Counted from the stretch's first letter, positions 34,078 to 53,277 are shown. The stretch is DNA of 64,000 nucleotides from Fibrobacteria bacterium (GCA_041746255.1 JBGTHM010000030.1:7182-71181), one strand, 5' to 3'. Notes: generated from the letters alone by a model not told the origin. Numbers and translations: made by a program.

Positions 34078-34763
34078 TGTTTTTTTTCGTGGGGCGGCAG
34101 CCAGACGACGAAAGTTGCGGCATCACCTGCCTCCAGTCCATTTACCGTTTTTACGGGCATGAAATATCCTGGGAACGTCTAGCAGGCGAGATCGAGCATT
34201 GGCGAACCGGGGGCACGGTGAATGTGAACCTGGCGCGTCATGCCTTGCGCGAAGGTTTCTCCGCCGAAATCTGCACCTATAACATCCGCATATTCGATCC
34301 CACTTGGAGAGGCTTATCTTCCGGGGAGCTTTCGCACAAACTAAAGCTCCGTCAGGCGAAAATGCGGAGTAAGAAACAGAAAATGGTCATCGGTTTCTAC
34401 CTCGACTTTCTGGAACGGGGGGGAGTCATCCGGTTCGACGACCTTAACGAAGGTCTTTTCGATACCCTGTTCGAGGAAAACCGACCTATCATCGTAGGAC
34501 TTTCGGCGACCTATCTCTATCAAAGCATGCGGGAAACGCCCAATAACGTGGACAACGACATCATTGGCCAGCCCGTGGGTCATTTCGTGGTGGTTTCGGG
34601 TTGGGACCGTGCCAGGCGCGAAGTCATCATCCACGATCCTCTGCGCAAGAATCCCATCGCGGAGTCCGGCAATTACAACCTCCCCTTCACCAAGTTCAGC
34701 AACGCCGTTATGTTGGGCATCATCACTTACGACGAAAACCTCCTTATCATTTCAAAAAAATGA
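34078..34763 (+). CDS. C39-like papain-fold cysteine peptidase
   Basis: QPDDESCGITCLQSIYRFYG gives a Gln/Cys catalytic motif. A downstream His/Asp pair lies in GHFVVVSGWD. Start at MFFFVGRQ; the listed ORF 34026 includes upstream read-through. Confidence 0.55.
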
Positions 34764-36286
34764 CAAAACAATATTATGTGGTCGAGAACCCCCGGTACTG
34801 GCGGAAGCGCGTGCCGCAAGTCGAATTTTTAAGCGTCAGCGAATACCTGTTTTCCAAAGAATACCAGGACGTCAAACAGCTGCGCATCATCAATCTGGCC
34901 CGCAATTACGGCTATTTGGGCGCGGGCTATTACGTGTCGCTGGTGGCCGAAGCCCGCGGACACCAGGTGATTCCCAATTTATCCACGGTTCAAGCCTTAA
35001 GCCGGAAAGAGTTCTATCTCATCGAAACCGACGATTTGGACGCGCAAATCCAGAAGAGTCTGGCGAATATCACCGACGATAAGTTCGAGTTGAGCGTCTA
35101 TTTCGGCCGCAACGTGAATAAAAAATACGAGAAGCTTTCGCGCCTTTTCTTCAACTTGCTGCCATGCCCCTTGTTTCGGGTGCATTTCGTCAAAGAGAAG
35201 CGGTGGGCACTGCATTCCATCAAGCCGGTGGCATTGGATAAAATCCCTGCCTATCACGACGAAATTTTCATGGAGGCTTTGCTCGATTTCGGGGTACGAA
35301 GATGGAGCCTACGCAAGCGCGCGAACACCTTGCGCTACGATTTGGCCATTCTCTTCAATCCCCACGAAAGGTATTCTCCTTCCAGTGAAGCGACTCTCCA
35401 GAAGTTCATCAAGGCGGGAAAGACCGCCGGTTTGGCAGTGGAAATTATCGAGAAACGGGATTATGCCCATCTGCCCGAATTCGACGGATTGTTCATACGC
35501 GAAACCACCGCAATCGATCATCACACCTTCCGTTTCGCGCGCAAGGCCGAAAAAGAGAACATGGTGGTCATTGACGACCCGCGCTCCATTCTTTACTGCA
35601 CCAATAAGATTTTTCTGAACGAGGTGTTCAAGCGCGCCGGTGTCCCGCGGCCGCGCACCCTGGTGCTCAGCGAGGAAAACCTGGAGTCGTCGCTGCAGGA
35701 ATTCTCCTTTCCCATCATCCTTAAAATTCCCGACGGATCGTTCTCGCGCGGTGTGGTCAAGGCACGGGACGCGGCGGAACTCAAGGCGCATAGCAAAGAA
35801 TTTTTCCGTCATTCCGATTACATCATCGCCCAGGAGTTCATGCCCACCGAATTCGATTGGCGCATTGGAATCTTCAACGGAAAGCCCCTTTTCGCATGCC
35901 AATACTTCATGTCCCGCGACCACTGGCAGATTATCAACCACAAGGTCGAGGGCAGCGGCCGACTGGGCAACCATAAAACCCACCCTATCGAGTTGATGGA
36001 AGAAAACATTATCGCAACGGCCCTGAAATCATGCAAGTTGATAGGCGACGGCCTTTACGGCGTCGACTTGAAGGTGGTCGAGGGCAAGCCCTATGTTGTG
36101 GAGGTGAACGACAATCCCAATATCGATACCGGAGTTGAGGATGAGCTGCTTAAGGATAAGCTTTACCAGATAATCATGGAGGAATTCGCGGTGCGAATCG
36201 ATAAGCGGCGAATGCGCAAGGATGGTTCGGCTGGTCAGGCTGCGCAGGATTTACCGAAGCTTATGAATTCCAAGGGGTACGCTTGA
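34760..36286 (+). CDS. RimK-type ATP-grasp ligase (alpha-L-glutamate ligase-like) with a ~250-aa N-terminal extension of unknown function
   Basis: C-terminal ATP-grasp motifs (PIILKIPDGSFSRGVVKA..., IIAQEFMPTEFDWRIGIFNGK, GVDLKVVEGKPYVVEVNDNPNI). ATGA start/stop overlap with the peptidase gene. The true start is MTKQYYVVEN. Confidence 0.7.
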   Translation: MTKQYYVVENPRYWRKRVPQVEFLSVSEYLFSKEYQDVKQLRIINLARNYGYLGAGYYVSLVAEARGHQVIPNLSTVQALSRKEFYLIETDDLDAQIQKSLANITDDKFELSVYFGRNVNKKYEKLSRLFFNLLPCPLFRVHFVKEKRWALHSIKPVALDKIPAYHDEIFMEALLDFGVRRWSLRKRANTLRYDLAILFNPHERYSPSSEATLQKFIKAGKTAGLAVEIIEKRDYAHLPEFDGLFIRETTAIDHHTFRFARKAEKENMVVIDDPRSILYCTNKIFLNEVFKRAGVPRPRTLVLSEENLESSLQEFSFPIILKIPDGSFSRGVVKARDAAELKAHSKEFFRHSDYIIAQEFMPTEFDWRIGIFNGKPLFACQYFMSRDHWQIINHKVEGSGRLGNHKTHPIELMEENIIATALKSCKLIGDGLYGVDLKVVEGKPYVVEVNDNPNIDTGVEDELLKDKLYQIIMEEFAVRIDKRRMRKDGSAGQAAQDLPKLMNSKGYA

Positions 36287-37506
36287 ACTATAAGCCATTT
36301 GAAGTATTCGGTATTGAAATCGAATATGCCGTCGTGGGGCGCGATAACCTGCAGGTAAAGCCCGTGGTGGACAAGCTAATCACCACCTTGTGCGGAAGCC
36401 CCAACCTGTTTCCCACCTTGGGAAATGCGGAAGCCGATAACGAACTGGCAGCCCATGTGGTCGAAATGAAATGCAAGGTCCCCACGGCGGATTGGGCCGC
36501 CCAGGCGCGCGACTTCCAACAAATGGTCTCGCTTCTCAATAAAACCTTGGACGGTTTGGACTCCCGTCTCATGCCCGGAGGTTCGCATCCCTTTATGGAC
36601 CCGGCCCGGGAATCGAAATTGTGGGAGCATGACGGCCGCGAAATCTATTCGACCTATGACGGCATTTTCGGATGCCGCGGTCATGGCTGGTTCAATCTTC
36701 AGAGCGTGCATTTGAACCTGCCCTTCTCCGATGACGCCTCGTTTAACCTTCTGCATAATGCGGTCAGTCTATTGCTCCCCCTTATGCCGGCTTTGGCGGC
36801 GGCTTCACCCGTATTGGAGGGCAAGCGCCATGCCTGGAAGGACGCCCGGCTTTTCCATTACTTGCAAAACCAAAGACGATTTCCTTCTGTTATCGGTCCG
36901 GTGATTCCCGAGCCATTGCGAAGCGAAGCGGAATACCGAGCGAAGATTTTGGCGCCTATGTATAGGGAAATCGCTTCTTCCGATCCGGAGGGGTTGCTCC
37001 AGGATGAATGGCTCAATTCCCGCGCGGCCATCGCCCGTTTCGATCGGGGCGCCATCGAGGTGCGCTGTATCGATACGCAAGAATGCCCGCTCGCCGACCT
37101 GGCCCTCTGTTTTTTCTTTTCCGGATTGTTGCGCGCGCTGTGCGAATCGAGGGCGGATTTGTACGGAGCGCATGCGGAGGTGCCGGGTGGAGTTTCGCGG
37201 GCACTATTCGAGGACTGCGCGCGCGTCGGAATGGATGTGCTTCTGCCGAAGGTTTATCCGCAGGAAGTTTTCGGCCTTAGCCAGAGGGAACGCAGCGCGC
37301 GGGATTTTTTCCAGGATCTACTGTCGACCGGCTTCGCATATGCCACCGTAGCGGAGAATGCCTTATTCCGACCTGTGATTGAGCATATCTTGACGCGGGG
37401 AAGCTTAAGCGATCGAATCATACGGTTGGCCGGCCCGAGGGAGGACTGGCTTTCGGCCTATAGGGAGGTGTGTGAATGTCTCGCTACAGGGCGTTTGCTG
37501 GAGTAG
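36283..37506 (+). CDS. GCS2-family (YbdK-like) carboxylate-amine ligase / glutamate-cysteine ligase family 2 protein
   Basis: N-terminal FGIEIEYAVV and an overall GCS2-like sequence. 4-nt start/stop overlap with the ATP-grasp gene. Confidence 0.65.
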   Translation: MNYKPFEVFGIEIEYAVVGRDNLQVKPVVDKLITTLCGSPNLFPTLGNAEADNELAAHVVEMKCKVPTADWAAQARDFQQMVSLLNKTLDGLDSRLMPGGSHPFMDPARESKLWEHDGREIYSTYDGIFGCRGHGWFNLQSVHLNLPFSDDASFNLLHNAVSLLLPLMPALAAASPVLEGKRHAWKDARLFHYLQNQRRFPSVIGPVIPEPLRSEAEYRAKILAPMYREIASSDPEGLLQDEWLNSRAAIARFDRGAIEVRCIDTQECPLADLALCFFFSGLLRALCESRADLYGAHAEVPGGVSRALFEDCARVGMDVLLPKVYPQEVFGLSQRERSARDFFQDLLSTGFAYATVAENALFRPVIEHILTRGSLSDRIIRLAGPREDWLSAYREVCECLATGRLLE

Positions 37507-37653: not shown

Positions 37654-40266
37654 ATGCAGGATAAACTTTGGCAGCGCACCGCGCGTGCCTATGTCGAATT
37701 CAGCTACCGGCATCCCTGGCCGCCAATACTGATTTTTCTGGCGTTGGGCCTGATAACCCTTTATTTGGGTACCGGATTACGCATCGAAACCGATTTACGG
37801 GTTTTGCTCCCCAAAAAAACCCCTTCCGTGCAGGCCTTGGAGGAATCGGAGCGCCGCATGGGCAGTACCGATTTGTTCACCCTCGCGATTCAGGCGCCCT
37901 CCGCCGAAGCCGTGGCGGCCTTCCAAAGAGACGCGGCCGCGGCGCTCTCCGAATGGGAAGGCGTTTCCTGGGTGCAATTCGATCAAGAAAGGGGCTTTTT
38001 CGAAGAAAAGGCCTTGCTGTATATGCCTCTGGGCGAATTGGAAGATTTGCGGGGCCGTATTTCGGACTTGGTGGGCAAAACCTTCGTGGAGCGAAACCCC
38101 TTTCTCCTCGATTTGGGTGACGACGATGAGGATTCAGAATCCCAGGGATTGCAAGGCTGGCCCGATACTCTGGCCTTACGACGCCAAGGCCTACCTCCGG
38201 ATATCGTGGCCGCTTTGCTGGCGAAAATCAATACCCACGATAATCGCAGCCCTACCGAAGAGACCTCGGCCCCGCGCGCTGATGCTGAAGATCCCGTCCG
38301 TCCCGATTCCTTAGCTTCGCGGCTTATGGGTTGGGACGGTAGCCGCGGCGCTTGGGTAGGCGTGGTATTGGCTCAACTTGACCAGCCTTCCACCAATGCC
38401 CAATTTGCTCAAGGTATTTTCGAGAAAGGCGAGGCGCTTATTCGCGAGTTAGATCCCGGGCGTTATCATCCTGAGATGATTGCGCGGGTTGCGGGCGCCT
38501 ATCGCAATTTCAGCGAAATCAAGCAAGTCAATACCGACATGGCGCTGGCGGGAACGATTTCCTTTTTGGGTGTATCGATTCTGCTTTTTCTGTTCCTGCG
38601 ACGATTCATCAATTTCGTTCTGGTCATGAGTCCGATTTTCATCGCCAGTTTTTGGACGCTGGGCGTTACCTACCTGATTTACGGACGGCTCACCTTATTG
38701 ACGGCCTTTATCCTGTCGCTGGTTTTGGGATTGGGGATAGAGTACTCCATTCACCTTTTCGGCCGTTGGGCGGAAGAGCGCCGTAAAGGCCAACATTCGC
38801 TGGAAGCCATGGTGGTCTCCCTGACCTATACCGGTAGGGCGTTGCTTTCGGGAGCGGCCACCAATATTTTCGCCATGCTAAGCCTGCAAGCGGGTAATTT
38901 TACCGGCTTCAAGGAATACGGTATCGTGGTCAGCTTGGGCATCGCATTCTGCCTTATCGCCTCTTGGGTCGTGATACCTCCGCTTTTCTTTTTATTTACC
39001 CGTTGGGGGACGGGTCTGGAAAGGGCGTTTCAGAATACGGATAACCGCGTGACGCGGAGCCTTGTGGGGCTGTGTCGATTTTTGCTTCCGGGAGAAAGCC
39101 TGGTTTCGGGAGGTAAGCTGCTGCCCCGTTTGCGGATAAGCGGCAAGGCTTTGAACCGGGTAGGTTACGCCGGCTTGGCGTTCACCTGCCTATTGCTCTT
39201 CACTCCGCCCGCCCAATTCGAAAACGACTTCCGGAATCTCCGGGGCGAGAGCACGGGGGCCGGCATCAGTTATGGACGCGCCGTAGGTAGCGGACGCAAT
39301 ACCTCCCCCTCCATTATTCTGGGCCATAGCGTGGAGCAGATGCGCCAGGTGCACGATTCCCTGGCGGCGCGTTTCGGCAGTCCGCCCGACAGCATGCTGC
39401 AAAGCTTCGTCACCATTTCCTCCTTTGTGCCCACCGAAGAGGAACAAAGCGAGAAAATCGAGGTGCTGGAAGAAATCAACGAATTGCTCGATGCGCGGGC
39501 CCTGGCGAATGTGGACGGGGATACCCGCGAAAAACTCGATCTGTTGCGGAGCTATGCCAGTCCCAGGCCTTTCGACTTCTCCGACCTTCCGGAATGGGCC
39601 CGGCGCTTCCTGACCGAAGCCGACGGCAGCCATGGAAAAATCGGATATATGTACGGACGGCTGCAGGAAAGCGACGCGATTGAGAGCGGTAAATTCCAAG
39701 ACCGCTTCGGTACTCTCCACTCCGAGTCGGGCCCGGTGCAGGTGGCGTCCAGCGGTTTCATCTACGCGGACGTCGTGCGCATGGTCAAACGCGACGGGGT
39801 CTATCTCGCCCTGGCCACCGTGTTTTTCCTCATGATCATCACCTGGGTAGACATGCGGAATTGGCGCGGTATGGCTTCGGTCCTGGGTTTCATCCTATTG
39901 TCCGGCTTTTGGACCTATGCGTTGATGGGCTTATTCGGTCTTAAGTTGGGCATGTTCAATCTGGTCATCATCCCGACCATACTCTCGGTTTCCGTCGATT
40001 CCGTGATCCATATGTACCATCGGCGCATGGAATTGGGCGCGGGGAAAATAGGCGAACTCATCCATACCACGGGGTCGGCGGTTCTCACGGGAACCCTGAC
40101 CAACGCCTTCGGATTCGCGGGCTTATGCTTCGTCAACCATAAGGGTTTGCAAACACTCGGGTATATGGCGACGCTGGGCATCGCCTCGGGGTTGGTGATC
40201 TTATTCACGATTCTACCCTGGTTTCTGGAACGAATTTGCCCCAAGGAGCCCGTCCGGGAATATTGA
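37654..40266 (+). CDS. MMPL/RND-superfamily exporter (two 6-TM bundles with large periplasmic domains)
   Basis: 870 aa. Duplicated hydrophobic bundles (…FLGVSILLFLFL…, …GFILLSGFWTYALMGLFG…) typical of MMPL/HpnN-like transporters. Confidence 0.75.
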   Translation: MQDKLWQRTARAYVEFSYRHPWPPILIFLALGLITLYLGTGLRIETDLRVLLPKKTPSVQALEESERRMGSTDLFTLAIQAPSAEAVAAFQRDAAAALSEWEGVSWVQFDQERGFFEEKALLYMPLGELEDLRGRISDLVGKTFVERNPFLLDLGDDDEDSESQGLQGWPDTLALRRQGLPPDIVAALLAKINTHDNRSPTEETSAPRADAEDPVRPDSLASRLMGWDGSRGAWVGVVLAQLDQPSTNAQFAQGIFEKGEALIRELDPGRYHPEMIARVAGAYRNFSEIKQVNTDMALAGTISFLGVSILLFLFLRRFINFVLVMSPIFIASFWTLGVTYLIYGRLTLLTAFILSLVLGLGIEYSIHLFGRWAEERRKGQHSLEAMVVSLTYTGRALLSGAATNIFAMLSLQAGNFTGFKEYGIVVSLGIAFCLIASWVVIPPLFFLFTRWGTGLERAFQNTDNRVTRSLVGLCRFLLPGESLVSGGKLLPRLRISGKALNRVGYAGLAFTCLLLFTPPAQFENDFRNLRGESTGAGISYGRAVGSGRNTSPSIILGHSVEQMRQVHDSLAARFGSPPDSMLQSFVTISSFVPTEEEQSEKIEVLEEINELLDARALANVDGDTREKLDLLRSYASPRPFDFSDLPEWARRFLTEADGSHGKIGYMYGRLQESDAIESGKFQDRFGTLHSESGPVQVASSGFIYADVVRMVKRDGVYLALATVFFLMIITWVDMRNWRGMASVLGFILLSGFWTYALMGLFGLKLGMFNLVIIPTILSVSVDSVIHMYHRRMELGAGKIGELIHTTGSAVLTGTLTNAFGFAGLCFVNHKGLQTLGYMATLGIASGLVILFTILPWFLERICPKEPVREY

Positions 40267-40296
40267 CTATTGGTTTGGGGTTCCTGTTTCCGGCTT

Positions 40297-40890
40297 TTAT
40301 TTGCGCGAAACGAAAGGGTTGTCCGCGAGGTAGAAGCGCAGCGGCAAATCGGCTCCCTGGGTAATGCCGATGCGCGTGGTGGTAACCACGTTTCCCCCCA
40401 AGGACGCTTGCCCGAGTTTAAGGCGGTTCCGGTTGCTTAAACGCAGGCTTCCCCGGTTTAAAGCCGCTCCGTTCTGGGAGAGGTTAATGTCCATGGCCTG
40501 TGCCAGTCGCCCGGGTCCGCTGCAAAGCCCTTTGCCGGTAGCCCCGGCACGGCGTTTGGCCATAAGGTCAAGGCCTTCCACGGGTTCTAACGCTCTTACC
40601 AGTACCGCCTCCCCGATGCCTTCAGGAGCTGTGACCACATTGAAACAGTGATACATGCCGTAGATGAGGTAAACATAGGCGGTTCCGGGGGGGCCGAACA
40701 TGGGCGAATTGCGGCGGGTTTGGCCTCTGGAAGCGTGGCAGGCGGGGTCATCGCGCAAGTAGGCTTCGGTTTCCACGATGCGGCCCACGGTTCGCCCTGC
40801 CGGACTTTCGTGCACCAGAAAGGTCCCAAGCAATTGGCGGGCAACGGTTACCGTATCCTGGTTGAAAAAATTACGGCGGGGTTGATGCAA
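40297..40890 (-). CDS. mpg: DNA-3-methyladenine glycosylase (Mpg/AAG family)
   Basis: 197 aa. Conserved AAG-family motifs ([24 protein letters not shown]). Confidence 0.85.
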
Positions 40891-41087
40891 AGCTACTCCT
40901 TACCCGGTACCCCAGCAAATTAGCCGCTTCCTTGGGCCAAGGAAAGTGGTTGGGAGGTTCTGGATTAGGGGTAGGGCAAAAATGTAACGGGATTGGGCCC
41001 GGAAAAAACATTTATTTAGAATAGGTAAGTTTAACGAGGGTGCTAATCATCCCTTAATGGGATTAGGGCTATTAACCGGGGATTTCG

Positions 41088-42404
41088 ATGCGGATTGTAA
41101 TGATGACCAATACGTATTTTCCGCATGTGGGCGGTGTGGCGCGGTCGGTCACGGGATTCAGCGAAGGGTTGCGTAACTCCGGTCATCAGGTGATGGTGGT
41201 GGCGCCGGAATTTCCGGATATGCCGGAGGAAGAGGTGAACGTCGTCCGCATCCCGGCCATTCAGCGATTCAACGGGAGTGATTTTTCGGTAAGGCTTCCG
41301 GTGCCCGGCTTTTTGGATGAGCCCCTGGAGGAGTTTTCACCTGAGATAATTCACTCTCACCATCCCTTTCTCGTTGGGGATACCGCGGTGCGCGTGGCGT
41401 CGGATAAAGGCCTTCCGCTGGTTTTCACCCATCACACGCTTTATGAGCAATACACCCATTACGTTAACGAACAATCCGAGGCGCTCAAACTTTTCGTGAT
41501 GGACCTTTCGACTGGTTACGCCAATTTGTGCGACCGCGTGGTGGCGCCCAGTCAAAGTATCGCCGATTTACTGGTCAAAAGGGGCGTGACCACTCCCATT
41601 ACAGTGGTTCCCACGGGCATCGATTTACAGCGCTTCAAACCCTCCGATCGAGTGTCGTTCCGCCGCGCCCAAGGAATACCCCCAGAGGCCTTTCTGGTGG
41701 GACATGTGGGGCGTTTGGCACAGGAAAAAAACCTGGCCTTTCTCACCGAAACCGTGGCGGCTTTTTTGCAAAAAAATCCGGAAGCATGGTTTATTCTGGT
41801 GGGCCAGGGTCCGCTCGAGCCGGAGTTACGGGGGATCTTGTCGAATCGCGGGGTGTCGGAACGGATTCGCTTTCTGGGGGTGTTGGGAGGGGATGAGTTG
41901 GCGGAGGCCTATGGTTGCATGGACGTCTTCGCGTTTACATCGCATAGCGAGACCCAGGGCATGGTTTTGGCCGAAGCGATGGCCTGCGGTGTGCCGGTTG
42001 TCGGCCTCGACGCGAGTGGAGTGCGCGAGGTGATTCGGGATTATGAAAACGGACGTCTTTTAAAACGGCAAGACGGTGAAGATTTTATCGCGGCCCTGGA
42101 ATGGGTCGGCTCACAGGATGAAGAAGGCGGCTCCCGGCTGCGTGAAGGGGCTTTGGCCACCGCACGCGACTTCTCACAGGAAAGCTCGGTGAAAAAGATT
42201 GTCGGCGTTTACAACCAGGCTCTTGAATTTCGCCGGCGCTCCTGGGAAGTATCCGAAGACGACCTCTGGTCTCAGGCGATTCGACGCATCCAGGCGGAAT
42301 GGGGGCTTCTCTCTAATTTGGCTCATGCGGCGGGTATGGCCATTTCCGGCTCCGATATTCCCACACTGGAAGCGGACCCTACCGGAACGGTCCATAATTC
42401 ATGA
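41088..42404 (+). CDS. Family 4 (GT-B) glycosyltransferase
   Basis: N-terminal MRIVMMTNTYFPHVGGVARSV, with a C-terminal EX7E-type region (GMVLAEAMACGVPVV). Confidence 0.8.
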   Translation: MRIVMMTNTYFPHVGGVARSVTGFSEGLRNSGHQVMVVAPEFPDMPEEEVNVVRIPAIQRFNGSDFSVRLPVPGFLDEPLEEFSPEIIHSHHPFLVGDTAVRVASDKGLPLVFTHHTLYEQYTHYVNEQSEALKLFVMDLSTGYANLCDRVVAPSQSIADLLVKRGVTTPITVVPTGIDLQRFKPSDRVSFRRAQGIPPEAFLVGHVGRLAQEKNLAFLTETVAAFLQKNPEAWFILVGQGPLEPELRGILSNRGVSERIRFLGVLGGDELAEAYGCMDVFAFTSHSETQGMVLAEAMACGVPVVGLDASGVREVIRDYENGRLLKRQDGEDFIAALEWVGSQDEEGGSRLREGALATARDFSQESSVKKIVGVYNQALEFRRRSWEVSEDDLWSQAIRRIQAEWGLLSNLAHAAGMAISGSDIPTLEADPTGTVHNS

Positions 42405-44830
42405 TTCAGGTTTTGGAAACGGGTCTTCGACGCCTGCGTCTTCTGGTAAGCCGAAGCGAATGGTCGCTTCGCTTTTTGAAGCTCGACCCTTCCGAGCTCC
42501 CCGAGTCGCAAAAGGGCCTGCTCATCATTCAAATCGATGGCCTGGCGCGTTCCCAGCTCGAAAAGGCCATTAAAGCCGGTCGCATGCCGTTTCTCCGACG
42601 GCTCCTGAAACGCGAAGGCTACTCTTTACATACAGTCTATTCAGGCATGCCGTCATCCACTCCGGCCGCTCAAGCGGAACTGTTTTATGGGGTAAAAGGC
42701 GCGGTACCGTCGTTTAGCTTTAGGGATAACGATACCGGTCGCTTCTCCGCCATGCTCCACCCCGAGGCTGCTCGTAAGGTGGAAAATCACATGGAGAAAG
42801 AGGGAGAGTCTCCGCTGCTGCGGGATGGCTGCTCCTATATGAATATTTTTACCGGCGGGGCCAAGGAATCGCATTTTTGCGCCTCATCCTTGGGTGCTGC
42901 GGATATCTGGAAACAGACCCGCTTCTGGCGCTTTTTTCCCGTGCTTCTCTGGAACCTGCGTAGCGTGGTGCGGCTGGTAACACTCCTTTTCGTCGAAATT
43001 TTTATCGCACTTTACGATTCGGTGCGGGGCGCCATCAAACTGGGCGAATATCGCCGCGAATTCATCTTTGTTTTTACGCGGGTGATTGTAGCGGTGGGGC
43101 TGCGCGAGCTGGTGGCGATTTTCGGAAGCATGGACGTGACTCGCGGTATGCCAATCGTGCATGCCAACTTCTGCGGTTACGACGAGCAGTCGCATCGGCG
43201 TGGTCCATCTTCGCGATTCGCCCAGTTCACCCTACGGGGCATAGACGGAGCCATCAAGCGATTGTGGCATGCGGCGCATCGCTCGCCGCGCCGCGATTAC
43301 GATATCTGGATTCTTTCCGATCACGGCCAAGAAACCGTCACGTCTTACTATCGCGAAAAAGGAAAATCGTTGCACGAGGCGATTTCTGAACTCCTGGGAT
43401 TAGAGGAAATAATTCCGACGAAAACCGGCAGGAATCAGGGCGGTGAAATGATGACCTTGGGGGGGAATTTCGAAAGTTACCTCCTCAAAGGGTTTCGTTG
43501 GATGAACAAAGAGTTGGTCGCGGCTTTTCCAATTTTACAAAAGGAAGTGCTGGTCACTTCCATGGGGCCCGTAGGTCAGTTGTATCCACCGGGACCCCTT
43601 AGTGCGGAGCAGCGAGAGGCCATGGCGGAAAAATTGGTGGCCGAACTGGGAATTCCCATTGTTCTCACCGCAGTACCCACGGAAAACAACGATCTGTCCG
43701 GCGAGGGAACGACTCCGGGTAGAAAAGCCTTGGCCTATACCGCGTCGGGACGGTACTTACTTCCGGAGGAAGCCGCCCCAGTTTTGGGTGAAAAACATCC
43801 CTTCCTGGAAGAATGCGCGCGCGACTTTGTCGATATCTGCCATCACCCCAATGCCGGCGTTTTCGTTCTTAGCGGTTGGCGGCCCCGAGGGCGCTCCCTC
43901 ACCTTCGGCTTTGAAAACGGGAGCCATGGAGGCCCCGGGTATGAGGAAACGCGCGCCTTTGCCCTGCTTCCGGGAAACGCGCCGCTTCCGGCCTATAAAG
44001 GCTACCTGCGCCACTCCGATTTGCGCGAAGCGGCCTTTCATGTGCGGGGACGGCGTTCGACGCTCTTGGACTACCGCCGCAAGGTACGTTTGGCCGAGAA
44101 AACCCTGCGGGTAATGACCTATAACATCCATGGCTGTGTCGGCATGGATGGCAGGGTATCCGCGGAGCGCATCGCCGAGGTGATCGATCATTACGAGCCG
44201 GATGTCATCGCCTTGCAGGAAAGCAAATCCTACCCTACCGGGCATCGCTATCAAAACCAAGCCGAAGAAATCGCCCATATCCTCATTCAGCGCTTTCATT
44301 TCCATTTGACCCCGCAGGTTGAGCAGGACGATTACGGAAACGCGATACTAAGTACCTTGCCTATGCGGCTACGTAAAAGAGGGCATTTGCCCACTCTGCA
44401 AAATCGCAATCTGGAGGAAAGGGGAGCCTTGTGGGCGGAGGTAACCCTACATGGGCAGAAATTGCAATTCATCAATACCCATCTGGGTTTGTTCTCCCAG
44501 GAAAGAATGCTCCAGGCCCAACATCTACTGGGAAAGGAATGGTTGAGTTCCGATGATTTCGAGGAGCCGGTAATCCTGTGCGGAGACTTTAACGCTTTTC
44601 CCTGGTCGGCAGCTTATAAAAAACTCGCACAAAGGCTCTATGAAGCCCAGGAAAATATGGCTTGGCATAAGCCCCTCGGTACGCTTTGGGGTCGCTATCC
44701 CGTCAGCCGAATCGACCATGTTTTCTGCAGTGTGGGTATCGAAACCCTTAAAATCGAGGTCCCTCGCACCCAATTGACCCGTTTGGCCTCGGACCATTTA
44801 CCGATTATTGCCGAATTGACCATTCCTTGA
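42401..44830 (+). CDS. Fusion protein with an N-terminal alkaline-phosphatase-superfamily phosphodiesterase/nucleotide pyrophosphatase-like domain and a C-terminal endonuclease/exonuclease/phosphatase (EEP) domain
   Basis: LLIIQIDGLARSQLE...TPAAQAELFYG resembles the type I phosphodiesterase metal-site. The C-terminal LRVMTYNIHGCVG...VIALQE...RIDHVF fits the EEP family. Start overlaps the GT4 stop. Confidence 0.6.
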   Translation: MIQVLETGLRRLRLLVSRSEWSLRFLKLDPSELPESQKGLLIIQIDGLARSQLEKAIKAGRMPFLRRLLKREGYSLHTVYSGMPSSTPAAQAELFYGVKGAVPSFSFRDNDTGRFSAMLHPEAARKVENHMEKEGESPLLRDGCSYMNIFTGGAKESHFCASSLGAADIWKQTRFWRFFPVLLWNLRSVVRLVTLLFVEIFIALYDSVRGAIKLGEYRREFIFVFTRVIVAVGLRELVAIFGSMDVTRGMPIVHANFCGYDEQSHRRGPSSRFAQFTLRGIDGAIKRLWHAAHRSPRRDYDIWILSDHGQETVTSYYREKGKSLHEAISELLGLEEIIPTKTGRNQGGEMMTLGGNFESYLLKGFRWMNKELVAAFPILQKEVLVTSMGPVGQLYPPGPLSAEQREAMAEKLVAELGIPIVLTAVPTENNDLSGEGTTPGRKALAYTASGRYLLPEEAAPVLGEKHPFLEECARDFVDICHHPNAGVFVLSGWRPRGRSLTFGFENGSHGGPGYEETRAFALLPGNAPLPAYKGYLRHSDLREAAFHVRGRRSTLLDYRRKVRLAEKTLRVMTYNIHGCVGMDGRVSAERIAEVIDHYEPDVIALQESKSYPTGHRYQNQAEEIAHILIQRFHFHLTPQVEQDDYGNAILSTLPMRLRKRGHLPTLQNRNLEERGALWAEVTLHGQKLQFINTHLGLFSQERMLQAQHLLGKEWLSSDDFEEPVILCGDFNAFPWSAAYKKLAQRLYEAQENMAWHKPLGTLWGRYPVSRIDHVFCSVGIETLKIEVPRTQLTRLASDHLPIIAELTIP

Positions 44831-45256
44831 GAATCGAGACCACCTTTTCCAGAAAAACTCCCAGCAGGAATGGGAGGGTCGCGGTATATTCTGGTTTATG
44901 TTCAATAAAAACGGCATGGCCTCGACCCGACGACCTCAGGAAAAAACTCCCCTCAAAGCCGAATGCCGCTGCGAGGCCGATAGTGAGCCTCGATATACGC
45001 TTAGATGGACCGGAAATGACCTTTCAGACCGTCTGGAGCCGGTGGTTGCACATGATTCGCCCATGCGGTTTTGCAACTTGGATCTTCAAGGGTCAATTTC
45101 CTCCCGGACCTTGCCTGTTTCCGGATATTTAAGTTTTTGATAATCGCTTCTTGCCATCCTCTCCCAATATCAACGCTTTAATTCGATTTCTAAACCGCTA
45201 GGATCCGGCATTCTATAGCGTCGGGTCCGCTAAATACTTACTTTTCCCATACTTTC

Positions 45257-45787
45257 GTGGCTCATACGGTGAGTTTTAAAGCCAAAGACGGGGCTATGAT
45301 GCAAAAAAATCCCGAATTGCAAAAAATTTTTGATAAACTGTGCGCTCCTGACGGCGAGCCCCGGGAAAGGCATCAAGCGCTCAGCAGCCTTAAGGATTTT
45401 TTGCGCGTCAATCCTAAGGACGATGTGGGAATGCGATATCTGCTGACGCAATGCCTACTCGAAACCGGGTTTGAAGAGGAGTTGGGCGAAATTCTGCAGC
45501 TCTATCCCGAAGACCAGGCTCCCGAAATCCGCTATACGCAAGCCCTTTGGACATTCCGCCGGGAAGGCCCGAGTCTTCAGGCCAATTTCGATTTAGCCGA
45601 GGCACTTACCGGTAACCCCTATGTTCCCGATTACCTGCTGCGGCGGAAAGCCCTACCGAAGTCACCTCCTCCCTTGGTTCAGCCTGGAGCGGAAGATGAA
45701 GCCATCACCTATGTCCTGAATTCACGGGAAAGCTGGCAAAAGACGCTGGGAGCCATTGAATGGCTGGCGATGAATACTTCTATTTAG
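45257..45787 (+). CDS. Hypothetical protein
   Basis: 176-aa ORF with coding-like composition and no recognisable motifs. Start uncertain. Confidence 0.4.
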   Translation: MAHTVSFKAKDGAMMQKNPELQKIFDKLCAPDGEPRERHQALSSLKDFLRVNPKDDVGMRYLLTQCLLETGFEEELGEILQLYPEDQAPEIRYTQALWTFRREGPSLQANFDLAEALTGNPYVPDYLLRRKALPKSPPPLVQPGAEDEAITYVLNSRESWQKTLGAIEWLAMNTSI

Positions 45788-45824
45788 GCCGCCGGAATCA
45801 CGAACCCCGGTTTGAGGAGGATTA

Positions 45825-46214
45825 ATGCTCTGTGCCAAGTGCCACTCACCCATGGAAAAGGTTAAATACCGCGAGGTAGAAGTCGATCGTTGCGTCAATT
45901 GCCAGGGCATTTGGTTCGATGGCCTGGAACACCGCCAACTGAAAGCCATGCCGGGCGCCGAAGCCGTGGATACCGGATCGGCCGAAGTCGGGAAGGTTTT
46001 CGACACCATGGAATCCGTCAAATGCCCGATTTGTGGAACGGTGATGGATACGGTGGAGGACACATGGCAGCGGCATATCCACTATGAAGTCTGTTCCCGG
46101 GGGCATGGAGCTTTTTTCGATGCCGGTGAGTTTCGCGATTTCAAAACCGAAACCTTGGCCGACTTCTTCCGCAATCTTTCGTTACGCCGCGGCCGCCGCG
46201 ATACCCCCTCCTAA
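45825..46214 (+). CDS. Zinc-ribbon domain protein (two CxxC...CxxC modules, TFIIB-type zinc-ribbon-like)
   Basis: CAKCHSPM...CVNCQGIW and CPICGTVM...CSRGHGAFFD. Confidence 0.55.
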   Translation: MLCAKCHSPMEKVKYREVEVDRCVNCQGIWFDGLEHRQLKAMPGAEAVDTGSAEVGKVFDTMESVKCPICGTVMDTVEDTWQRHIHYEVCSRGHGAFFDAGEFRDFKTETLADFFRNLSLRRGRRDTPS

Positions 46215-46220
46215 CCGCTT

Positions 46221-47630
46221 TCAGGTTACCGAACGCAAATAGTTTTCCACCTCCGTCTGGATTTCGCGCCGCACCCCGGCGCGGTTCCGGCTCAGGTTTT
46301 TAAGGTCAAGCCGTCCGATATACTTGGTACTGATGAGCGGGCGTAATACCGACATGGGAATATTGCAGGGATTATTCAGCAAGGCCAAGGGCACATCTCG
46401 GTTTGCGAAACCGGAATAAAGGTGTTTCGACTTGGCGATGGTGGTAAGCACCGGAACGGAGCGGCACACGGCCACCACATGCGCCACTATGCCTGGAGCC
46501 TGGTTCACCTTGGGGTTGTTCAGCAATCCTTCCAGCACCGAGTCGCGGGAGATATTCTGGTTGATGAGGGTGCGCATGTCCACGGAAATCTCGTCCCCCT
46601 TCAAGTAGGGAATGGACAGCATGTCCTTGCCAATCCACTGCGCATAGGCGCGGTGTCGCAAATCCACTTCGATATGGTCGCGAAAAATCTTCGCGCCGCT
46701 GCCCGTCAGCCTACCCATCAACACCTTGGCTCCCACCTCACCCTGAAGGGTGAAAAGCCCCTCGTCATAACCCTTAAGAGCGGTTTCCAGGCAATCCAGC
46801 GGCGTAGGAGTTTCTTCCATCGCTTCGGCTGCCCAGCGGCACAACGTGCTCAGGGCGATCAAATCGGCGGAAGCAATTTTCTTCTCCAATTGTAAGGAGA
46901 GGATGCGGGTTAATTGAGCCAGTTCCGCGCGCTTTTGCACCTTTCCCCACCATTTCTCGAATGCGGCCGGTTTCATGCGGTCGGCCAATGTGAGCGTGGG
47001 TTGGCCTACGGGCTCGCGGTACTTGAGACGCTTAGCGAGTTCGAGTCCGCCCTGCACCAACTCGTCATAGATGCGCAGTCGCGGGAGTACCCGCGCCATT
47101 ACCTTCATGTCATAGGGGTCTACGTTTTCGGATAGCCAATCAACCCGCTCCCTTAATGCCAGCGCTTCGCATTCGATGAGGAGAATTATCGCATCTACTT
47201 CCGGTTCCGCTATGGGCTGCCCCGCCAGCAGCCCTTCAAACTCCTTTCGCGCGCGCTTTACCGCCTCCTTGAAATCGGAAAGGCTCCAAAGCGCCAATCC
47301 ATCGCGGAGGGTTTTCGCCAATTGCAACTCATGCGGAGAATGGGCGCAATTGGATTCGATGCGCATGAGGATTCGTTGCAGGCGTTGGACACGGAGGGCG
47401 CGCCTGCCGATATGGGCGTGGGCCGGTTCGATATGGAGAAGGCTGAGACAGAGGCGCTCCAGCCAATTGCGGGAAGGTTCCGTTTCACCCAATAGCGCCA
47501 ATAAATCATCTGCGGGTAAGCGCTCTTCGGTGCCGACGAAGAATTGGGCCAGCTTTTCCGCGCCCATAGCATAATCCTGAAGCTTTTCCAACTCGTTTTC
47601 AATGAGATTCCAGGGGGATGGGAGCTTCAC
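46221..47630 (-). CDS. Hypothetical alpha-helical protein
   Basis: 469-aa ORF with no recognisable catalytic motifs. Confidence 0.5.
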   Translation of the reverse strand: MKLPSPWNLIENELEKLQDYAMGAEKLAQFFVGTEERLPADDLLALLGETEPSRNWLERLCLSLLHIEPAHAHIGRRALRVQRLQRILMRIESNCAHSPHELQLAKTLRDGLALWSLSDFKEAVKRARKEFEGLLAGQPIAEPEVDAIILLIECEALALRERVDWLSENVDPYDMKVMARVLPRLRIYDELVQGGLELAKRLKYREPVGQPTLTLADRMKPAAFEKWWGKVQKRAELAQLTRILSLQLEKKIASADLIALSTLCRWAAEAMEETPTPLDCLETALKGYDEGLFTLQGEVGAKVLMGRLTGSGAKIFRDHIEVDLRHRAYAQWIGKDMLSIPYLKGDEISVDMRTLINQNISRDSVLEGLLNNPKVNQAPGIVAHVVAVCRSVPVLTTIAKSKHLYSGFANRDVPLALLNNPCNIPMSVLRPLISTKYIGRLDLKNLSRNRAGVRREIQTEVENYLRSVT

Positions 47631-47805: not shown

Positions 47806-48897
47806 ATGGGCGGAATAAACCGGAAGCGGATTGTGCTTACAGGCGGTGGAACCGCCGGCCATGTTTCGCCCAATTTGGCTTTGGTTCCCGCGCTTAAGGC
47901 TGACGGGTGGGAAATCGAATACATCGGCTCCCACAAGGGAATCGAGAAATCGCTGGTGGAAGCCCAATCCATTTCCTACCATGCCATCTCCTCAGGAAAA
48001 TTGAGACGGTACTTCGATTGGCGTAATTTTACCGATCCCTTCAGCATTCTGCTGGGGGTTTTTCAGGCATTTTACCTCCTGTTCACTCGGCGCCCCCAGG
48101 TGGTTTTTTCCAAGGGCGGCTTCGTCACGGTTCCCGTGGTTTTCGCGGCTTGGTTGTTGCGAATTCCCGCGCTTATTCACGAATCCGACTTGAGCCCAGG
48201 TCTAGCCAATCGACTCTGCATACCCTTCGCGGCCCGCATTTGCTATAGCTTTCCCGAAACCATCCGGCAGCTTCCCATGAATAAGTCGGTCCATACGGGC
48301 ACTCCGATTCGCGCCGAACTTCTTCAAGGCGAGGCTTCCCGGGGTTTGGCGGCGGTGGGATTCGAGGCTGGCGGAGAAGCCAAGCCCGTACTTTTGGTGA
48401 TGGGTGGCAGCCTCGGATCACGCGCGTTGAATCACGCCGTGCGCGCCATTATGCCCGCGCTTACGGCACGGTTTCGGGTGATTCACCTATGCGGCAAAGG
48501 GGGCCGCGATCCCGCTCTGGAGGCAATAGCCGGGTATCGCCAATTTGAATTTTTAGGTAAGGAACTTCCCGATGTTTTCGCCGCCTCCGACCTGGTGCTT
48601 TCCCGGGCAGGCGCCAATGCCTTGTTCGAATTGCTTGCATTGCGCAAGCCTCATTTGCTGGTGCCTTTGTCGCGCGCCGCTTCGCGCGGCGATCAAATCC
48701 TCAATGCCGCGGCATTCGAAAGACTGGGTTACAGCCGGGTAGTCCAGGAGGAGGAATTGAAAGGACCCGACAGGCTTTTGCTTGAATTGGAGATGCTCTG
48801 GTCCGAAAGAGAAGAGCGCTTCACCCGCATGGGAGAAAGCCCCATCGGCGATGCGGCGGAAATCATCCTTGCGCAAATCCGAAACCTGGCCGGATAA
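47806..48897 (+). CDS. murG: Undecaprenyldiphospho-muramoylpentapeptide beta-N-acetylglucosaminyltransferase
   Basis: GGTAGHVSP (cf. GGTGGHVFP), HESD (cf. HEQN) and GGSLGSR (cf. GGSQGAR) align with E. coli MurG across the full length. Confidence 0.8.
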   Translation: MGGINRKRIVLTGGGTAGHVSPNLALVPALKADGWEIEYIGSHKGIEKSLVEAQSISYHAISSGKLRRYFDWRNFTDPFSILLGVFQAFYLLFTRRPQVVFSKGGFVTVPVVFAAWLLRIPALIHESDLSPGLANRLCIPFAARICYSFPETIRQLPMNKSVHTGTPIRAELLQGEASRGLAAVGFEAGGEAKPVLLVMGGSLGSRALNHAVRAIMPALTARFRVIHLCGKGGRDPALEAIAGYRQFEFLGKELPDVFAASDLVLSRAGANALFELLALRKPHLLVPLSRAASRGDQILNAAAFERLGYSRVVQEEELKGPDRLLLELEMLWSEREERFTRMGESPIGDAAEIILAQIRNLAG

Positions 48898-48939
48898 ACC
48901 TGGTCCTCGCGCCTCGCTAAAATTAAAATTAGGGTACTT

Positions 48940-49596
48940 ATGGAAATCATCAAAGAATTTATAGACCTATTTCTCAACCTCGACGTCCATTTAGCGGGAA
49001 TTATCACGGATTACGGTACCTGGACCTATGCCATTTTGTTTCTCATTATTTTCTGTGAAACCGGTCTGGTGGTGACGCCAATACTACCCGGAGACTCGCT
49101 GCTATTCGCTGCCGGCTCGCTGGCCGCCATTACCATACTGGACCCGCATGTAATTGTGGTCTTGTTGATTGTTGCCGCCATACTGGGGGATATGGTCAAT
49201 TATTGGGCGGGTAACTTTTTCGGATCCGCCATCTTCAAAGAAGATGCCCGTTTCCTGAAAAAAGCCTATCTCGATCGCACCTATGATTTCTACGAACGAT
49301 TCGGGGGCAAGACCATCGTTATCGCCCGTTTCGTGCCCATCGTTCGTACCTTCGCGCCCTTCGTGGCCGGTATGGGGCGTATGCGCTACCACCGCTTCTT
49401 CTTTTTCAACGTTTCCGGAGCGATTCTTTGGGTGGTCCTATTTGTCTACGGGGGCTATTGGTTCGGAAATATTCCCATTGTCCAGAAAAACTTCACTCTA
49501 GTCATTCTAGCCATCATCGGACTCTCGGTTTTACCCATGATTATCGAATTCTTCCGGCATCGCAAGGCTGCGGTCGTTCCTCAGCGGATGGACTGA
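48940..49596 (+). CDS. DedA-family membrane protein
   Basis: 218 aa. DedA/SNARE-associated motif region (…CETGLVVTPILPGDSLLFAAG…). Confidence 0.8.
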   Translation: MEIIKEFIDLFLNLDVHLAGIITDYGTWTYAILFLIIFCETGLVVTPILPGDSLLFAAGSLAAITILDPHVIVVLLIVAAILGDMVNYWAGNFFGSAIFKEDARFLKKAYLDRTYDFYERFGGKTIVIARFVPIVRTFAPFVAGMGRMRYHRFFFFNVSGAILWVVLFVYGGYWFGNIPIVQKNFTLVILAIIGLSVLPMIIEFFRHRKAAVVPQRMD

Positions 49597-49630
49597 ATCC
49601 CCACAGGGGATTGTTACCTTTCCAAACATT

Positions 49631-50803
49631 ATGCGTTATGAAGACCGCGGAGCCTCCGCCGATAAACACGAAGTTCATGCCGCCTTGAAAGGGCGCGACG
49701 GAGGGCTCTTTCCGGGCGCCTTTTGTAAAATCCTGCCCGATACCCTGACGGGAAGCCCCGACCATTGCCTAATCATCCATGCCGACGGAGCGGGCACCAA
49801 ATCCATTCTCGCCTATTTGCATTGGCGCGAAACCGGAGATGCTACCGTCTTTAAGGGAATCGCGCAGGATTCCCTGGTGATGAATCTCGATGACCTGTTC
49901 TGCGTAGGAGCCACGGGCCCCTTTCTACTTTCCAATACCATCGGTCGTAACGCAAAGTTGATTTCTGGAGAAGTTATCGCGGCGCTGGTGGATGGCTATC
50001 GCGATTTATGCGGGACTTTTGCGGGATTAGGCATTGAAATCCACTCGGGCGGCGGTGAAACCGCGGACATGGGTGATAGTATTCGGACGCTGGTCGTGGA
50101 TTCCACCCTGGTCACCCGCTGTAAACGCTCCGAGATTATCACCGGAGAGAAAATCCGTCCCGGTCTGGTGATAGTAGGGTTGGCTTCGGGTGGGCGTGCC
50201 CAATACGAAACCCGGGAGAATTCCGGATTGGGCAGTAATGGATTCACTTCCATTCGTCACGAAATTCTTTCCCCGTATTACAAAGAAAAATACCCTGAAA
50301 TATATGCACCCGAAATTGAGCCCTTGGCCTATATGGGTAAGTACCGTCTGGAAGACGTATTGTCCGGTAGCGAGCTGACCATTGGAGAGGCTTTACGTTC
50401 ACCCACCCGGACCTATGCTCCGGTTTTACGGCAAGTCTTGGCAAAGCACCGCGACTCCGTGGCTGCCATCTTTCATAATACCGGCGGGGGACAAACCAAA
50501 TGCCTGCGTTTCGGCCAGGGAATTCTTTATATCAAGGATAACCTCTTCGAACCGCCCCCCCTATTCCGCTTATTGGAGCAGGAGTCGGCCTTGGGCGAAA
50601 AGGAGCTTTACCGTTCCTTGAACATGGGCCACCGTATGGAGATTCTATGTGAGCCGACAGCTGCAAATGCCATCGTGACTATTGCCGCCGGATTCGGAAT
50701 CGCCGCCCAAATCGTGGGTCGCACCGAACCAGGGCCTGCGGGAAACCGGCTGGTTATCCGGCGAGGCGGCCAAGAGTTCGAATTCGAATTGGGTTCCCAC
50801 TAA
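49631..50803 (+). CDS. AIR-synthase-related (PurM-like) family protein
   Basis: PurM-like N- and C-domains (DGAGTKS..., GGGETADMGD). It does not look like canonical PurM, HypE or SelD. Confidence 0.55.
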   Translation: MRYEDRGASADKHEVHAALKGRDGGLFPGAFCKILPDTLTGSPDHCLIIHADGAGTKSILAYLHWRETGDATVFKGIAQDSLVMNLDDLFCVGATGPFLLSNTIGRNAKLISGEVIAALVDGYRDLCGTFAGLGIEIHSGGGETADMGDSIRTLVVDSTLVTRCKRSEIITGEKIRPGLVIVGLASGGRAQYETRENSGLGSNGFTSIRHEILSPYYKEKYPEIYAPEIEPLAYMGKYRLEDVLSGSELTIGEALRSPTRTYAPVLRQVLAKHRDSVAAIFHNTGGGQTKCLRFGQGILYIKDNLFEPPPLFRLLEQESALGEKELYRSLNMGHRMEILCEPTAANAIVTIAAGFGIAAQIVGRTEPGPAGNRLVIRRGGQEFEFELGSH

Positions 50804-52432: not shown

Positions 52433-52783
52433 ACATTCTTAAGAAGTTTAAAAAAATAAACGCCGGTTACCATAGAAGCTAGATAAATTTCCCTATTACC
52501 CAAAAGTATTAATTGAAAAAATCTTTTCGATTCTACCCTTAGTCCAAATAAAAAACAAGTAAGGGTGATTAATTATTTTGCGAATTTTGGGTTTTGTGGT
52601 GGTAAGGTCCAGGCTGAAGCGTTTTCTCCCAGCCGACCGCGTAAGTAAGTATTATAATCTAATTCCAGCTCACCGGATAAGGGATTCGGGCCGTTGATAA
52701 ATGAGCTGATGGGAAATATCGGTTACTGGGTGGAACATGGCCCATTTTTTTCTCTATAGGGGGATTTACCCCGGGGTTAACCC
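52433..52783. promoter_or_regulatory. AT-rich ~350-bp divergent intergenic region
   Basis: GC drops sharply (runs such as aaaaaaataaacgcc, ttaattgaaaaaatctttt) between divergently oriented genes. It is a likely promoter hub. Confidence 0.4.
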
Positions 52784-53275: not shown

Positions 53276-53277
53276 CG

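Follow-up and report, generated by a model that had tools for sequence, protein, structure and literature searches.

Bacteria can turn membrane phospholipids into glycolipids with a phospholipase C, PlcP, and a family 4 glycosyltransferase (GT4), Agt, a pair known from SAR11, Phaeobacter and Pseudomonas aeruginosa, where the genes are PA3219-PA3218 (PMC4796936, PMC8528852). The logic of that pathway is cleavage of the head group to give diacylglycerol, followed by conversion of the diacylglycerol to a glycolipid. Here we analyze a pair of comparable layout, a phosphoesterase gene and a GT4 gene in one operon, in a 64,000-nucleotide (nt) stretch of DNA from a Fibrobacteria bacterium (GCA_041746255.1, JBGTHM010000030.1:7182-71181; the whole stretch is called the window below). 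PlcP is a calcineurin-like metallophosphoesterase, whereas the phosphoesterase of the pair, a protein of 809 amino acids (aa), combines a hairpin-bearing NPP-type domain of the alkaline phosphatase (AP) superfamily with a domain of the endonuclease/exonuclease/phosphatase (EEP) superfamily. Because neither protein of the pair matches PF00149, the module is not a PlcP-Agt system.

Other described systems resemble single parts of the module. Its GT4 shares the GT4 fold and a full-length alignment with Mgs and with GpgS, the GlcNAc-phosphatidylglycerol (GlcNAc-PG) synthase, which represent its best-scoring curated families. The gpgSDF operon encodes a deacetylase and a flippase (PMC12713373) and, unlike the module, no AP/EEP enzyme. 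We rejected the GlcN-PG gpgSDF system as an identity for the module on the scores of the GT4, which were far below the cut-offs. The AP domain has the fold of the NPPs and PhnA (Xanthomonas NPP 2gsn, ENPP6 5egh and PhnA 1ei6) and their seven-residue constellation of bimetal ligands and Thr; it differs from them in having no signal peptide, an inserted hairpin of ~75 aa, a disordered loop of ~40 aa and a fusion to EEP, and in some proteins also to GT4. The EEP domain has the fold and the N/E/H/D/N/D/H set of bacterial EEPs (4ruw, 3g6s, 3teb and the mannosyl-6-phosphatase BT3783, 4c1r), nocturnin and TDP2, but it is the C-terminal domain of an AP enzyme. Coupling or fusion of a glycosyltransferase to a phosphatase is also seen in compatible-solute and related pathways, such as the sucrose-phosphate (SPS/SPP) and trehalose-phosphate (TPS/TPP) synthase-phosphatase pairs, MpgS/MpgP, and MshA with the unidentified MshA2 phosphatase. 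Compatible-solute pairs often have a glycoside hydrolase (GH)-type catabolic enzyme nearby, as the module does, but their phosphatases are soluble and of the HAD or histidine-phosphatase type, in contrast to the two other folds and the hydrophobic hairpin found here.

The three domains can be assigned clearly to GT4, to the NPP/PhnA branch of the AP superfamily and to the EEP superfamily. As far as our searches went, their combination has not been described: a GT4 with a hairpin-bearing AP domain and usually an EEP domain, often accompanied by DedA and a GH-like protein. The module is a widespread, conserved and uncharacterised system built from known folds.

Results

Linkage of the two genes

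At the junction of the two genes (tcATGAtt), the ATG of the second gene shares bases with the TGA stop codon of the GT4 gene. This 4-nt overlap has the form of a classic translational-coupling junction, and from the sequence the GT4 and AP/EEP genes are predicted to be translationally coupled. The exact coordinates (Table 1) confirm the initial annotation, which had the 809-aa protein start within the GT4 stop codon. The start codon at 42401 is supported by the conservation of the protein, which begins at about residue 10 (R10, R13, S17, R18, S19, E20 and W21 in the 34 homologues used for the structural model below). A promoter and terminator scan of positions 40200-46300 gave counts at or below the shuffle expectation and was uninformative.

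The neighbourhood of the gene was compared in 81 loci, namely the window and 80 fetched loci, 73 of which had enough upstream sequence for a GT4 call. An orthologous GT4 gene on the same strand lay directly 5′ of AP/EEP in 70 of the 73 loci, which belong to more than 10 phyla. These GT4s were 44-62% identical, and their genes ended within ~200 nt of the AP/EEP start or overlapped it; the 4-nt overlap was found in about half of the tabulated adjacent pairs. In several lineages the three domains form collinear GT4-AP-EEP fusions of ~1230 aa, with GT4 at residues 1 to ~421 and AP-EEP from ~431. Adjacency at this frequency and the triple fusions substantiate the functional link between the GT4 and the two-domain enzyme that had been proposed from the window sequence.

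The EEP domain is less constant. Fusions of GT4 and AP that lack EEP exist, including a complete 988-aa gene within a 20-kb contig, and there are AP-only proteins of 510-590 aa, one of which precedes a gene on the opposite strand. The GT4-AP forms without EEP imply that the evolutionary core consists of GT4 and the hairpin-bearing AP domain. EEP has often been added to this core, yet some lineages do without it.

Distribution of the fused phosphoesterase

We searched 5.8 billion proteins for relatives of the 809-aa protein and scored 8,000 candidates, among which 1655 protein clusters (90% identity) were related to it at E ≤ 0.001. Of 120 listed homologues, 116 were 716-839 aa long, collinear and 45-56% identical over their full length, and nearly all had both Pfam domains. 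More than 100 independent full-length collinear homologues (792-839 aa) span the AP/EEP junction, which removes the worry, raised by the initial annotation, that assembly had joined two genes. Forms with AP only (572 aa) or GT4-AP (988 aa) do show that EEP is separable in evolution, as would be expected if separate genes had been wrongly joined or were adjacent by chance. We nevertheless regard an assembly or annotation artefact, or a chance adjacency, as having negligible probability, because the open reading frame (ORF) is uninterrupted, the homologues come from independent assemblies and a single-chain model had a predicted template-modelling score (pTM) of 0.86. Full-length collinear homologues number in the hundreds, which rules an artefact out.

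When one genome per species was scanned, at least 563 genome stretches proved to encode a relative of the 809-aa protein, and the architecture, first described as uncommon, is thus not rare. With the AP part alone, a full HMMER pass gave 494 representatives (clusters at 50% identity) at E ≤ 1e-30. Among the carriers are Fibrobacterota, Sumerlaeota, Planctomycetota, Nitrospinota, Nitrospirota, Desulfobacterota, Verrucomicrobiota, Omnitrophota, Alphaproteobacteria and Gammaproteobacteria, and diderm (Gram-negative-type) phyla account for most of those named. Saccharospirillum salsuginis, Rheinheimera, Arsukibacterium tuosuense and Microbulbifer aestuariivivens are cultured carriers. The proteins are annotated generically ('endonuclease/exonuclease/phosphatase family protein' or 'EEP family protein') or wrongly ('oxidoreductase').

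Structure of the phosphoesterase

An AlphaFold2 (AF2) model of the 809-aa protein was built on 34 homologues, and residue conservation was scored over the same 34 aligned sequences. The single-chain model had a mean predicted local distance difference test score (pLDDT) of 83.3 in addition to the pTM given above. It predicts two short N-terminal helices, an AP-type alpha/beta core, a linker and an EEP beta-sandwich (aa 568-807), in this order. The AP domain is split by the hairpin insert and by the disordered loop (aa 337-375). It matched the Pfam family Phosphodiest (PF01663) at 1.7e-11, with 44.7 bits against a gathering cut-off of 23, and the PhnA model TIGR02335 matched aa 36-114, the region of the nucleophile. 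When the domain was compared with the PDB by Foldseek, PhnA (1ei6) and ENPP6 (5egh) were found at ~8e-12 with a target-normalised TM-score of ~0.62. The putative metal ligands and nucleophile, D46, T87, D261, H265, D307, H308 and H509, are invariant in the 34 homologues, and their spacing along the sequence fits the NPP pattern, as in the Xanthomonas NPP.

The EEP domain matched Exo_endo_phos (PF03372) at aa 572-799 (2.3e-23, 83.5 bits against a cut-off of 24.5). It also passed PF23226, the PGAP2IP C-terminal nuclease-like domain, with 29.3 bits against 27; the corresponding domain of PGAP2IP/Cwh43 is implicated in remodelling of glycosylphosphatidylinositol lipids. Foldseek matches in the PDB were 4ruw, TDP2 and nocturnin at 1e-14 to 1e-11 (4ruw and TDP2 at 1e-14), and a family profile of the domain matched 4ruw (7e-14), 3g6s (1e-13), nocturnin (2e-5) and the mannosyl-6-phosphatase 4c1r (8e-5). 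The catalytic set N575, E607, H694, D729, N731, D798 and H799 is invariant in the same homologues. Neutral sphingomyelinase and inositol polyphosphate 5-phosphatase were absent from the 50 best Foldseek matches and from the 13 PDB profile matches of the domain. The label 'sphingomyelinase/inositol-phosphatase-like', which the initial annotation had given to this domain, thus finds no specific support: its nearest relatives of solved structure are uncharacterised bacterial EEPs, nocturnin, the mannosyl-6-phosphatase and TDP2.

The presence of two hydrolase folds, as originally proposed, is borne out by the Pfam domain calls, the AF2 model and the Foldseek matches. Because all expected catalytic residues are invariant in the 34 sequences, both domains are predicted to be active. 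With an isoelectric point (pI) of 9.3, the AP part is basic. The protein has no signal peptide and is thus predicted to be cytoplasmic.

The hydrophobic segment had first been placed between the two domains. In the model it is a helical hairpin inside the AP domain, and the true linker is hydrophilic and basic (Table 1). The hairpin is modelled as two long helices, aa 186-214 and 217-248, at a pLDDT of 64-80. In the window protein, the maximum Kyte-Doolittle hydrophobicity over 19 residues was 2.0 within the hairpin and at most 1.5 in the rest of the protein. Over the aligned sequences the median was 2.06 for helix 1 (range 1.67-2.53) and 1.63 for helix 2, and in each of the 34 the hairpin was above the threshold usually applied to transmembrane segments. 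Its invariant charged residues (R191, E199, D206, E220, R227, R235 and D245) make a simple transmembrane assignment uncertain. The hairpin is probably a monotopic or re-entrant membrane anchor, or a lipid-binding lid.

The glycosyltransferase

Judged by its sequence, the product of the first gene is a clear member of CAZy family GT4, with a predicted GT-B fold and a retaining-type mechanism. It matched Glyco_transf_4 (1.3e-35, 123.3 bits against a cut-off of 28.5) and Glycos_transf_1 (1.8e-32, 112.7 bits against 26.4) of Pfam. The EX7E motif is present in the C-terminal domain as E288-TQGMVLA-E296, and an extension of ~55 aa follows the catalytic core. The protein is acidic (pI 5.1).

The top NCBIfam model for the window GT4 was Mgs, the alpha-monoglucosyl-diacylglycerol synthase (NF049988), which matched over the full length with 164 bits (4.9e-48). 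It was the top model in all 7 GT4s tested, with 128-154 bits in the six orthologues, and the GlcNAc-PG synthase model (NF053787) was second in 5 of the 7. These scores of 128-164 bits lie far below the equivalog cut-offs of 400 bits (Mgs) and 480 bits (GlcNAc-PG synthase), so that Mgs is the nearest family of the window GT4 but not one to which it belongs. As it fell short of the Mgs, GpgS and MshA equivalog thresholds, we place the GT4 outside every characterised GT4 subfamily. In the PDB, the nearest sequences were MshA (the best, at 3e-22), PimA and BshA. The match to MshA starts only at residue 85, whereas the lipid-acceptor GT4 models align over the full length. TIGR04063 and other exopolysaccharide (EPS)-type GT4 models were also among the matches.

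Partner genes in other genomes

All-vs-all clustering of the ORFs from the 81 loci gave only three recurrent partners of AP/EEP: the GT4, a hypothetical protein of ~750 aa and a DedA/VTT membrane protein. All other clusters reflected lineage synteny or consisted of promiscuous domains of the signalling or heat-shock type. The ~750-aa gene lay directly 5′ of the GT4 gene in 46 of 62 loci, and the DedA/VTT gene lay 5′ of the ~750-aa gene in 33 of 59. The full form of the module is an operon of DedA, the ~750-aa GH15/65/94-like protein, GT4 and AP/EEP. DedA and the ~750-aa protein are the usual partners outside Fibrobacterota, and the window has the minimal two-gene form, like the other loci of Fibrobacterota, Planctomycetota and Nitrospinota. 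A tblastn search of the whole window found no homologue of the ~750-aa protein, of the operon-type DedA or of the Aas-like protein described below. Two metagenome-assembled genomes (MAGs) labelled Halobacteria archaeon (L041 and L058) carry the full DedA/750-aa/GT4/AP-EEP operon; with the bacterial reference queries these operons share 59-65% identity in DedA and the ~750-aa protein, which suggests mis-binned bacterial contigs or recent transfer.

The ~750-aa family had no match in Pfam or NCBIfam and its members are always annotated as 'hypothetical'. Across phyla they share 60-85% identity, and 4794 of 8,000 scored candidates matched the family at E ≤ 1e-5. Its AF2 model (pLDDT 73) predicts a beta-sandwich, an (alpha/alpha)6 barrel and a C-terminal beta domain; the N-terminal ~100 aa are rich in invariant residues and were modelled with low confidence. 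Foldseek matched the model to GH15 glucodextranase and glucoamylase, GH94 cellobiose phosphorylase and GH65 glucosylglycerol phosphorylase, with GH116 glucosylceramidase-type enzymes among the lower matches.

A partner of this fold raises the alternative that the module makes a soluble glycoside such as a compatible solute. In this scheme the GT4 would glycosylate a phosphorylated small acceptor, as in MshA, sucrose-phosphate synthase and GpgS, the AP domain, the EEP domain or both would dephosphorylate the product, and the GH15/65/94-like partner would degrade or phosphorolyse it. Synthase-phosphatase fusions such as TPS/TPP, SPS/SPP and MpgS/MpgP are the hallmark of such pathways. The GT4 has its best PDB sequence match in MshA and the acidity of a soluble enzyme, and the EEP profile matched a mannosyl-6-phosphatase. 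In addition, an MscS channel gene lies directly 3′ of the pair in two loci (L001 and L006), and OsmC is found beside an AP-only form (L089). In our assessment this alternative is somewhat less likely than the glycolipid reading discussed below. It leaves unexplained the strong and conserved hydrophobicity of the hairpin, the retention of two different phosphoesterase domains, and the genes for DedA, Aas-like proteins and alpha/beta-hydrolases nearby. The best full-length fit of the GT4 is to lipid-acceptor models, the MshA match covering the protein only from residue 85.

Aas-like acyl-ACP synthetase/acyltransferase genes neighbour the pair in L004 and L053. In a Rhodospirillales genome an Aas-like protein with AMP-binding, carrier-protein and PlsC acyltransferase domains takes the position of DedA. 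In Arsukibacterium and Rheinheimera, an alpha/beta-hydrolase gene (Abhydrolase_1/Hydrolase_4) is coupled 5′ of DedA, giving a five-gene operon.

The DedA partner bears on a further alternative, metabolism or recycling of polyprenyl-phosphate-linked glycans. Here the GT4 would act on a sugar linked to undecaprenyl (pyro)phosphate, the NPP-type domain would cut a pyrophosphate or phosphodiester, DedA would flip polyprenyl phosphate, and the GH-like protein would trim the glycan. Many GT4s use undecaprenyl-pyrophosphate-linked acceptors, and the matches to TIGR04063 and EPS-type models fit this scheme, as does the fact that NPP enzymes are pyrophosphatases and phosphodiesterases. A hairpin is compatible with a lipid-linked substrate, and the predominance of diderm phyla among the named carriers points in the same direction. 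The operon-type DedA does match the model of the undecaprenyl-phosphate transporter UptA (E = 5e-4), but weakly and far under the cut-off, with 20 against 250 bits. Moreover, the genes conserved beside the module include no initiating phosphoglycosyl transferase, Wzx/Wzy or ABC exporter, and the minimal two-gene form, as in the window, stands alone. We therefore judge a polyprenyl-linked pathway to be quite improbable.

Other genes of the window

Table 1. Coordinates of the gene pair, its domains, its window neighbours and partner genes at other loci
Feature	Position	Residues or length	Strand	Basis or remark
GT4 glycosyltransferase gene	41088..42404	438 aa	+	ORF call
AP/EEP bifunctional phosphoesterase gene	42401..44830	809 aa	+	uninterrupted ORF
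AP-superfamily (NPP/PhnA-like) domain	42506..43975	aa 36-525	+	Pfam, NCBIfam, Foldseek
Hydrophobic helical hairpin	42923..43144	aa 175-248	+	inserted within AP domain (AF2 prediction)
Inter-domain linker	43976-44101	aa 526-567	+	hydrophilic, basic
EEP domain	44102..44827	aa 568-809	+	PF03372, PF23226, Foldseek
mpg, methylpurine-DNA glycosylase	40297..40890		-	PF02245, 7.5e-68; neighbour, outside module
MMPL/HAE3-type RND transporter	37654..40266	870 aa	+	PF03176, 5.6e-25
~750-aa 'hypothetical protein' (examples)	L003:6461-8695, L004:4459-6705, L007:4412-6700	~750 aa		
Alpha/beta-hydrolase genes	L044:4690-5598, L055:4634-5548, also L074, L082			

An MMPL transporter gene precedes the pair in the window, with mpg on the opposite strand between them, as the initial annotation had described and the coordinates confirm. 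Its suggestion that the MMPL exporter is a partner of the pair found little support in the comparison: MMPL was near the pair in 3 of the 81 loci (the window, L008 and L011), all of Fibrobacterota type, and was split from it by opposite-strand genes. The mpg gene was near the pair in 2 of the 81 (the window and the Fibrobacteres MAG L008). We rejected both as family-wide partners on these counts and, for mpg, on its strand. We treat the proximity of MMPL as lineage synteny within Fibrobacterota, and a functional link specific to this phylum is possible. In a Fibrobacteria MAG (L011:6536-12379), MMPL is followed by one minus-strand ORF and then by AP/EEP, with no adjacent GT4; this is one of only 3 of the 73 loci without GT4, and the only hint that closeness to MMPL may be relevant within the phylum. 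Identification of the MMPL protein as the hopanoid transporter HpnN was rejected, with 183 against 752 bits for TIGR03480 and 77 against 1100 bits for NF052374.

The window is syntenic with the Fibrobacteres MAG contig JAQBPO010000039 at protein identities of 49-62%, the common order being GCS2, MMPL, mpg, GT4, AP/EEP, ST7-like and Zn-ribbon; the window thus probably derives from a related, uncultured bacterium. Upstream, the GCS2 gene (36283-37506), of the glutamate-cysteine-ligase family, is overlapped at its start by a gene for a RimK-like ATP-grasp protein with an N-terminal RLAN domain (34601-36286). Both genes keep this position in the Fibrobacteres MAG L001; they look like a coupled pair of peptide or amide ligases. 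Downstream, the ST7-like ORF (45257-45787) aligns only with the C-terminal ~138 aa (285-422 of 425) of its homologue in a related MAG, and the MscS gene found 3′ of AP/EEP in the related MAG is absent from the window. The truncated ORF and the absence of MscS suggest that a deletion left a gene remnant and ~430 nt that contain no convincing gene. A 101-aa ORF with a TTG start (44827-45132) and a 469-aa ORF on the minus strand (46221-47630) had no match in Pfam or NCBIfam.

Region 47806-50803 contains murG (GT28, above the NCBIfam cut-off) outside any dcw cluster, followed by a generic DedA gene and an AIR-synthase-like gene (PurM-related, below the cut-off). This DedA (48940-49596) was rejected as a partner of the module, being of the generic PRK10847 type and unrelated to the operon DedA. 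Farther downstream are a minus-strand Bac_transf initiating sugar transferase with a CoA-binding domain (50855-52432), an 837-aa protein with fn3 and FGE-sulfatase domains (53278-55791) and a Polysacc_synt flippase (55828-57333); region 50855-57333 is apparently devoted to surface polysaccharides.

Discussion

We favour the reading that GT4 and AP/EEP form a membrane-face glycolipid module in which the phosphoesterase supplies or processes the lipid acceptor of an Mgs-like GT4, and assign it a probability of roughly 35%. The module would work on the cytoplasmic side of the inner membrane, with a membrane lipid or a lipid-linked molecule as its substrate. The hairpin, together with amphipathic helices at the N-terminus, would hold the basic AP domain at or in the bilayer, where this domain, with Thr87 as nucleophile and a bimetal site, would cleave a lipid phosphate ester; the likeliest reaction would be conversion of a phospholipid or phosphatidate to diacylglycerol. 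The acidic GT4, recruited by the AP domain or in some lineages fused to it, would then glycosylate the resulting lipid from an NDP-sugar. A second phosphoester may fall to the Mg-dependent EEP domain, which could, for instance, dephosphorylate a sugar phosphate or the phospho-head group that is released. We infer the membrane location, the identity of the substrate, the order of the steps and the product.

Several observations make a lipid or membrane substrate plausible. These are the hydrophobic hairpin, the basic AP domain and the DedA, acyltransferase and alpha/beta-hydrolase neighbours, as well as the GT4, for which the lipid-acceptor families Mgs and GlcNAc-PG synthase are nearest and PimA is among the nearest PDB sequences. 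The match of EEP to the C-terminal domain of PGAP2IP/Cwh43 also favours a lipid. The PlcP-Agt pathway provides a precedent for such chemistry (PMC4796936, PMC8528852). Thus, the initial proposal that the locus remodels a phospho-glyco-lipid head group is plausible in its link to lipids, while the remodelling itself is hypothetical.

Other observations weigh against a glycolipid module. The most conserved additional partner has a GH15/GH65/GH94-type fold, which is typical of soluble sugar metabolism, and the best PDB match of the GT4 to MshA and the MscS and OsmC neighbours likewise point toward soluble sugar-phosphate chemistry. The GT4 differs in its acidity from typical membrane-binding lipid glycosyltransferases, and it is far under every equivalog cut-off (164 against 400 bits for the nearest), so that a lipid is only a candidate acceptor. 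The nearest solved relatives of EEP include a sugar phosphatase and neither a sphingomyelinase nor a phospholipase C. The hairpin, with its invariant charges, could be a buried or dimerisation element instead. Our literature searches found no paper on this fusion, operon or family. Finally, a scan for the Pho box (CTGTCAT-N4-CTGTCAT, ≤3 mismatches) at the operon starts of 18 gammaproteobacterial loci and the window found none, which may argue against classic control by phosphate starvation, although this was a crude consensus test and is not informative for other phyla.

A more specific form of the glycolipid reading is that GT4 and AP/EEP are the core of an undescribed multi-phylum pathway that makes a new class of membrane glycolipid or phosphoglycolipid, or that replaces PlcP-Agt by non-homologous enzymes, with the AP domain acting as a phospholipase or lipid phosphatase at the cytoplasmic face. 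We offer this only tentatively.

The fusions of GT4 with AP and EEP, and of GT4 with AP, yield a testable hypothesis, namely that the enzymes catalyze consecutive steps, and the cultured carriers make the module directly testable. If the module makes or remodels a membrane lipid, it would represent a new route to bacterial glycolipids. It would then also provide a first function for one DedA subfamily and for a highly conserved family of ~750-aa hypothetical proteins, and would be a candidate genetic source for the glycolipids seen in environmental lipidomics.

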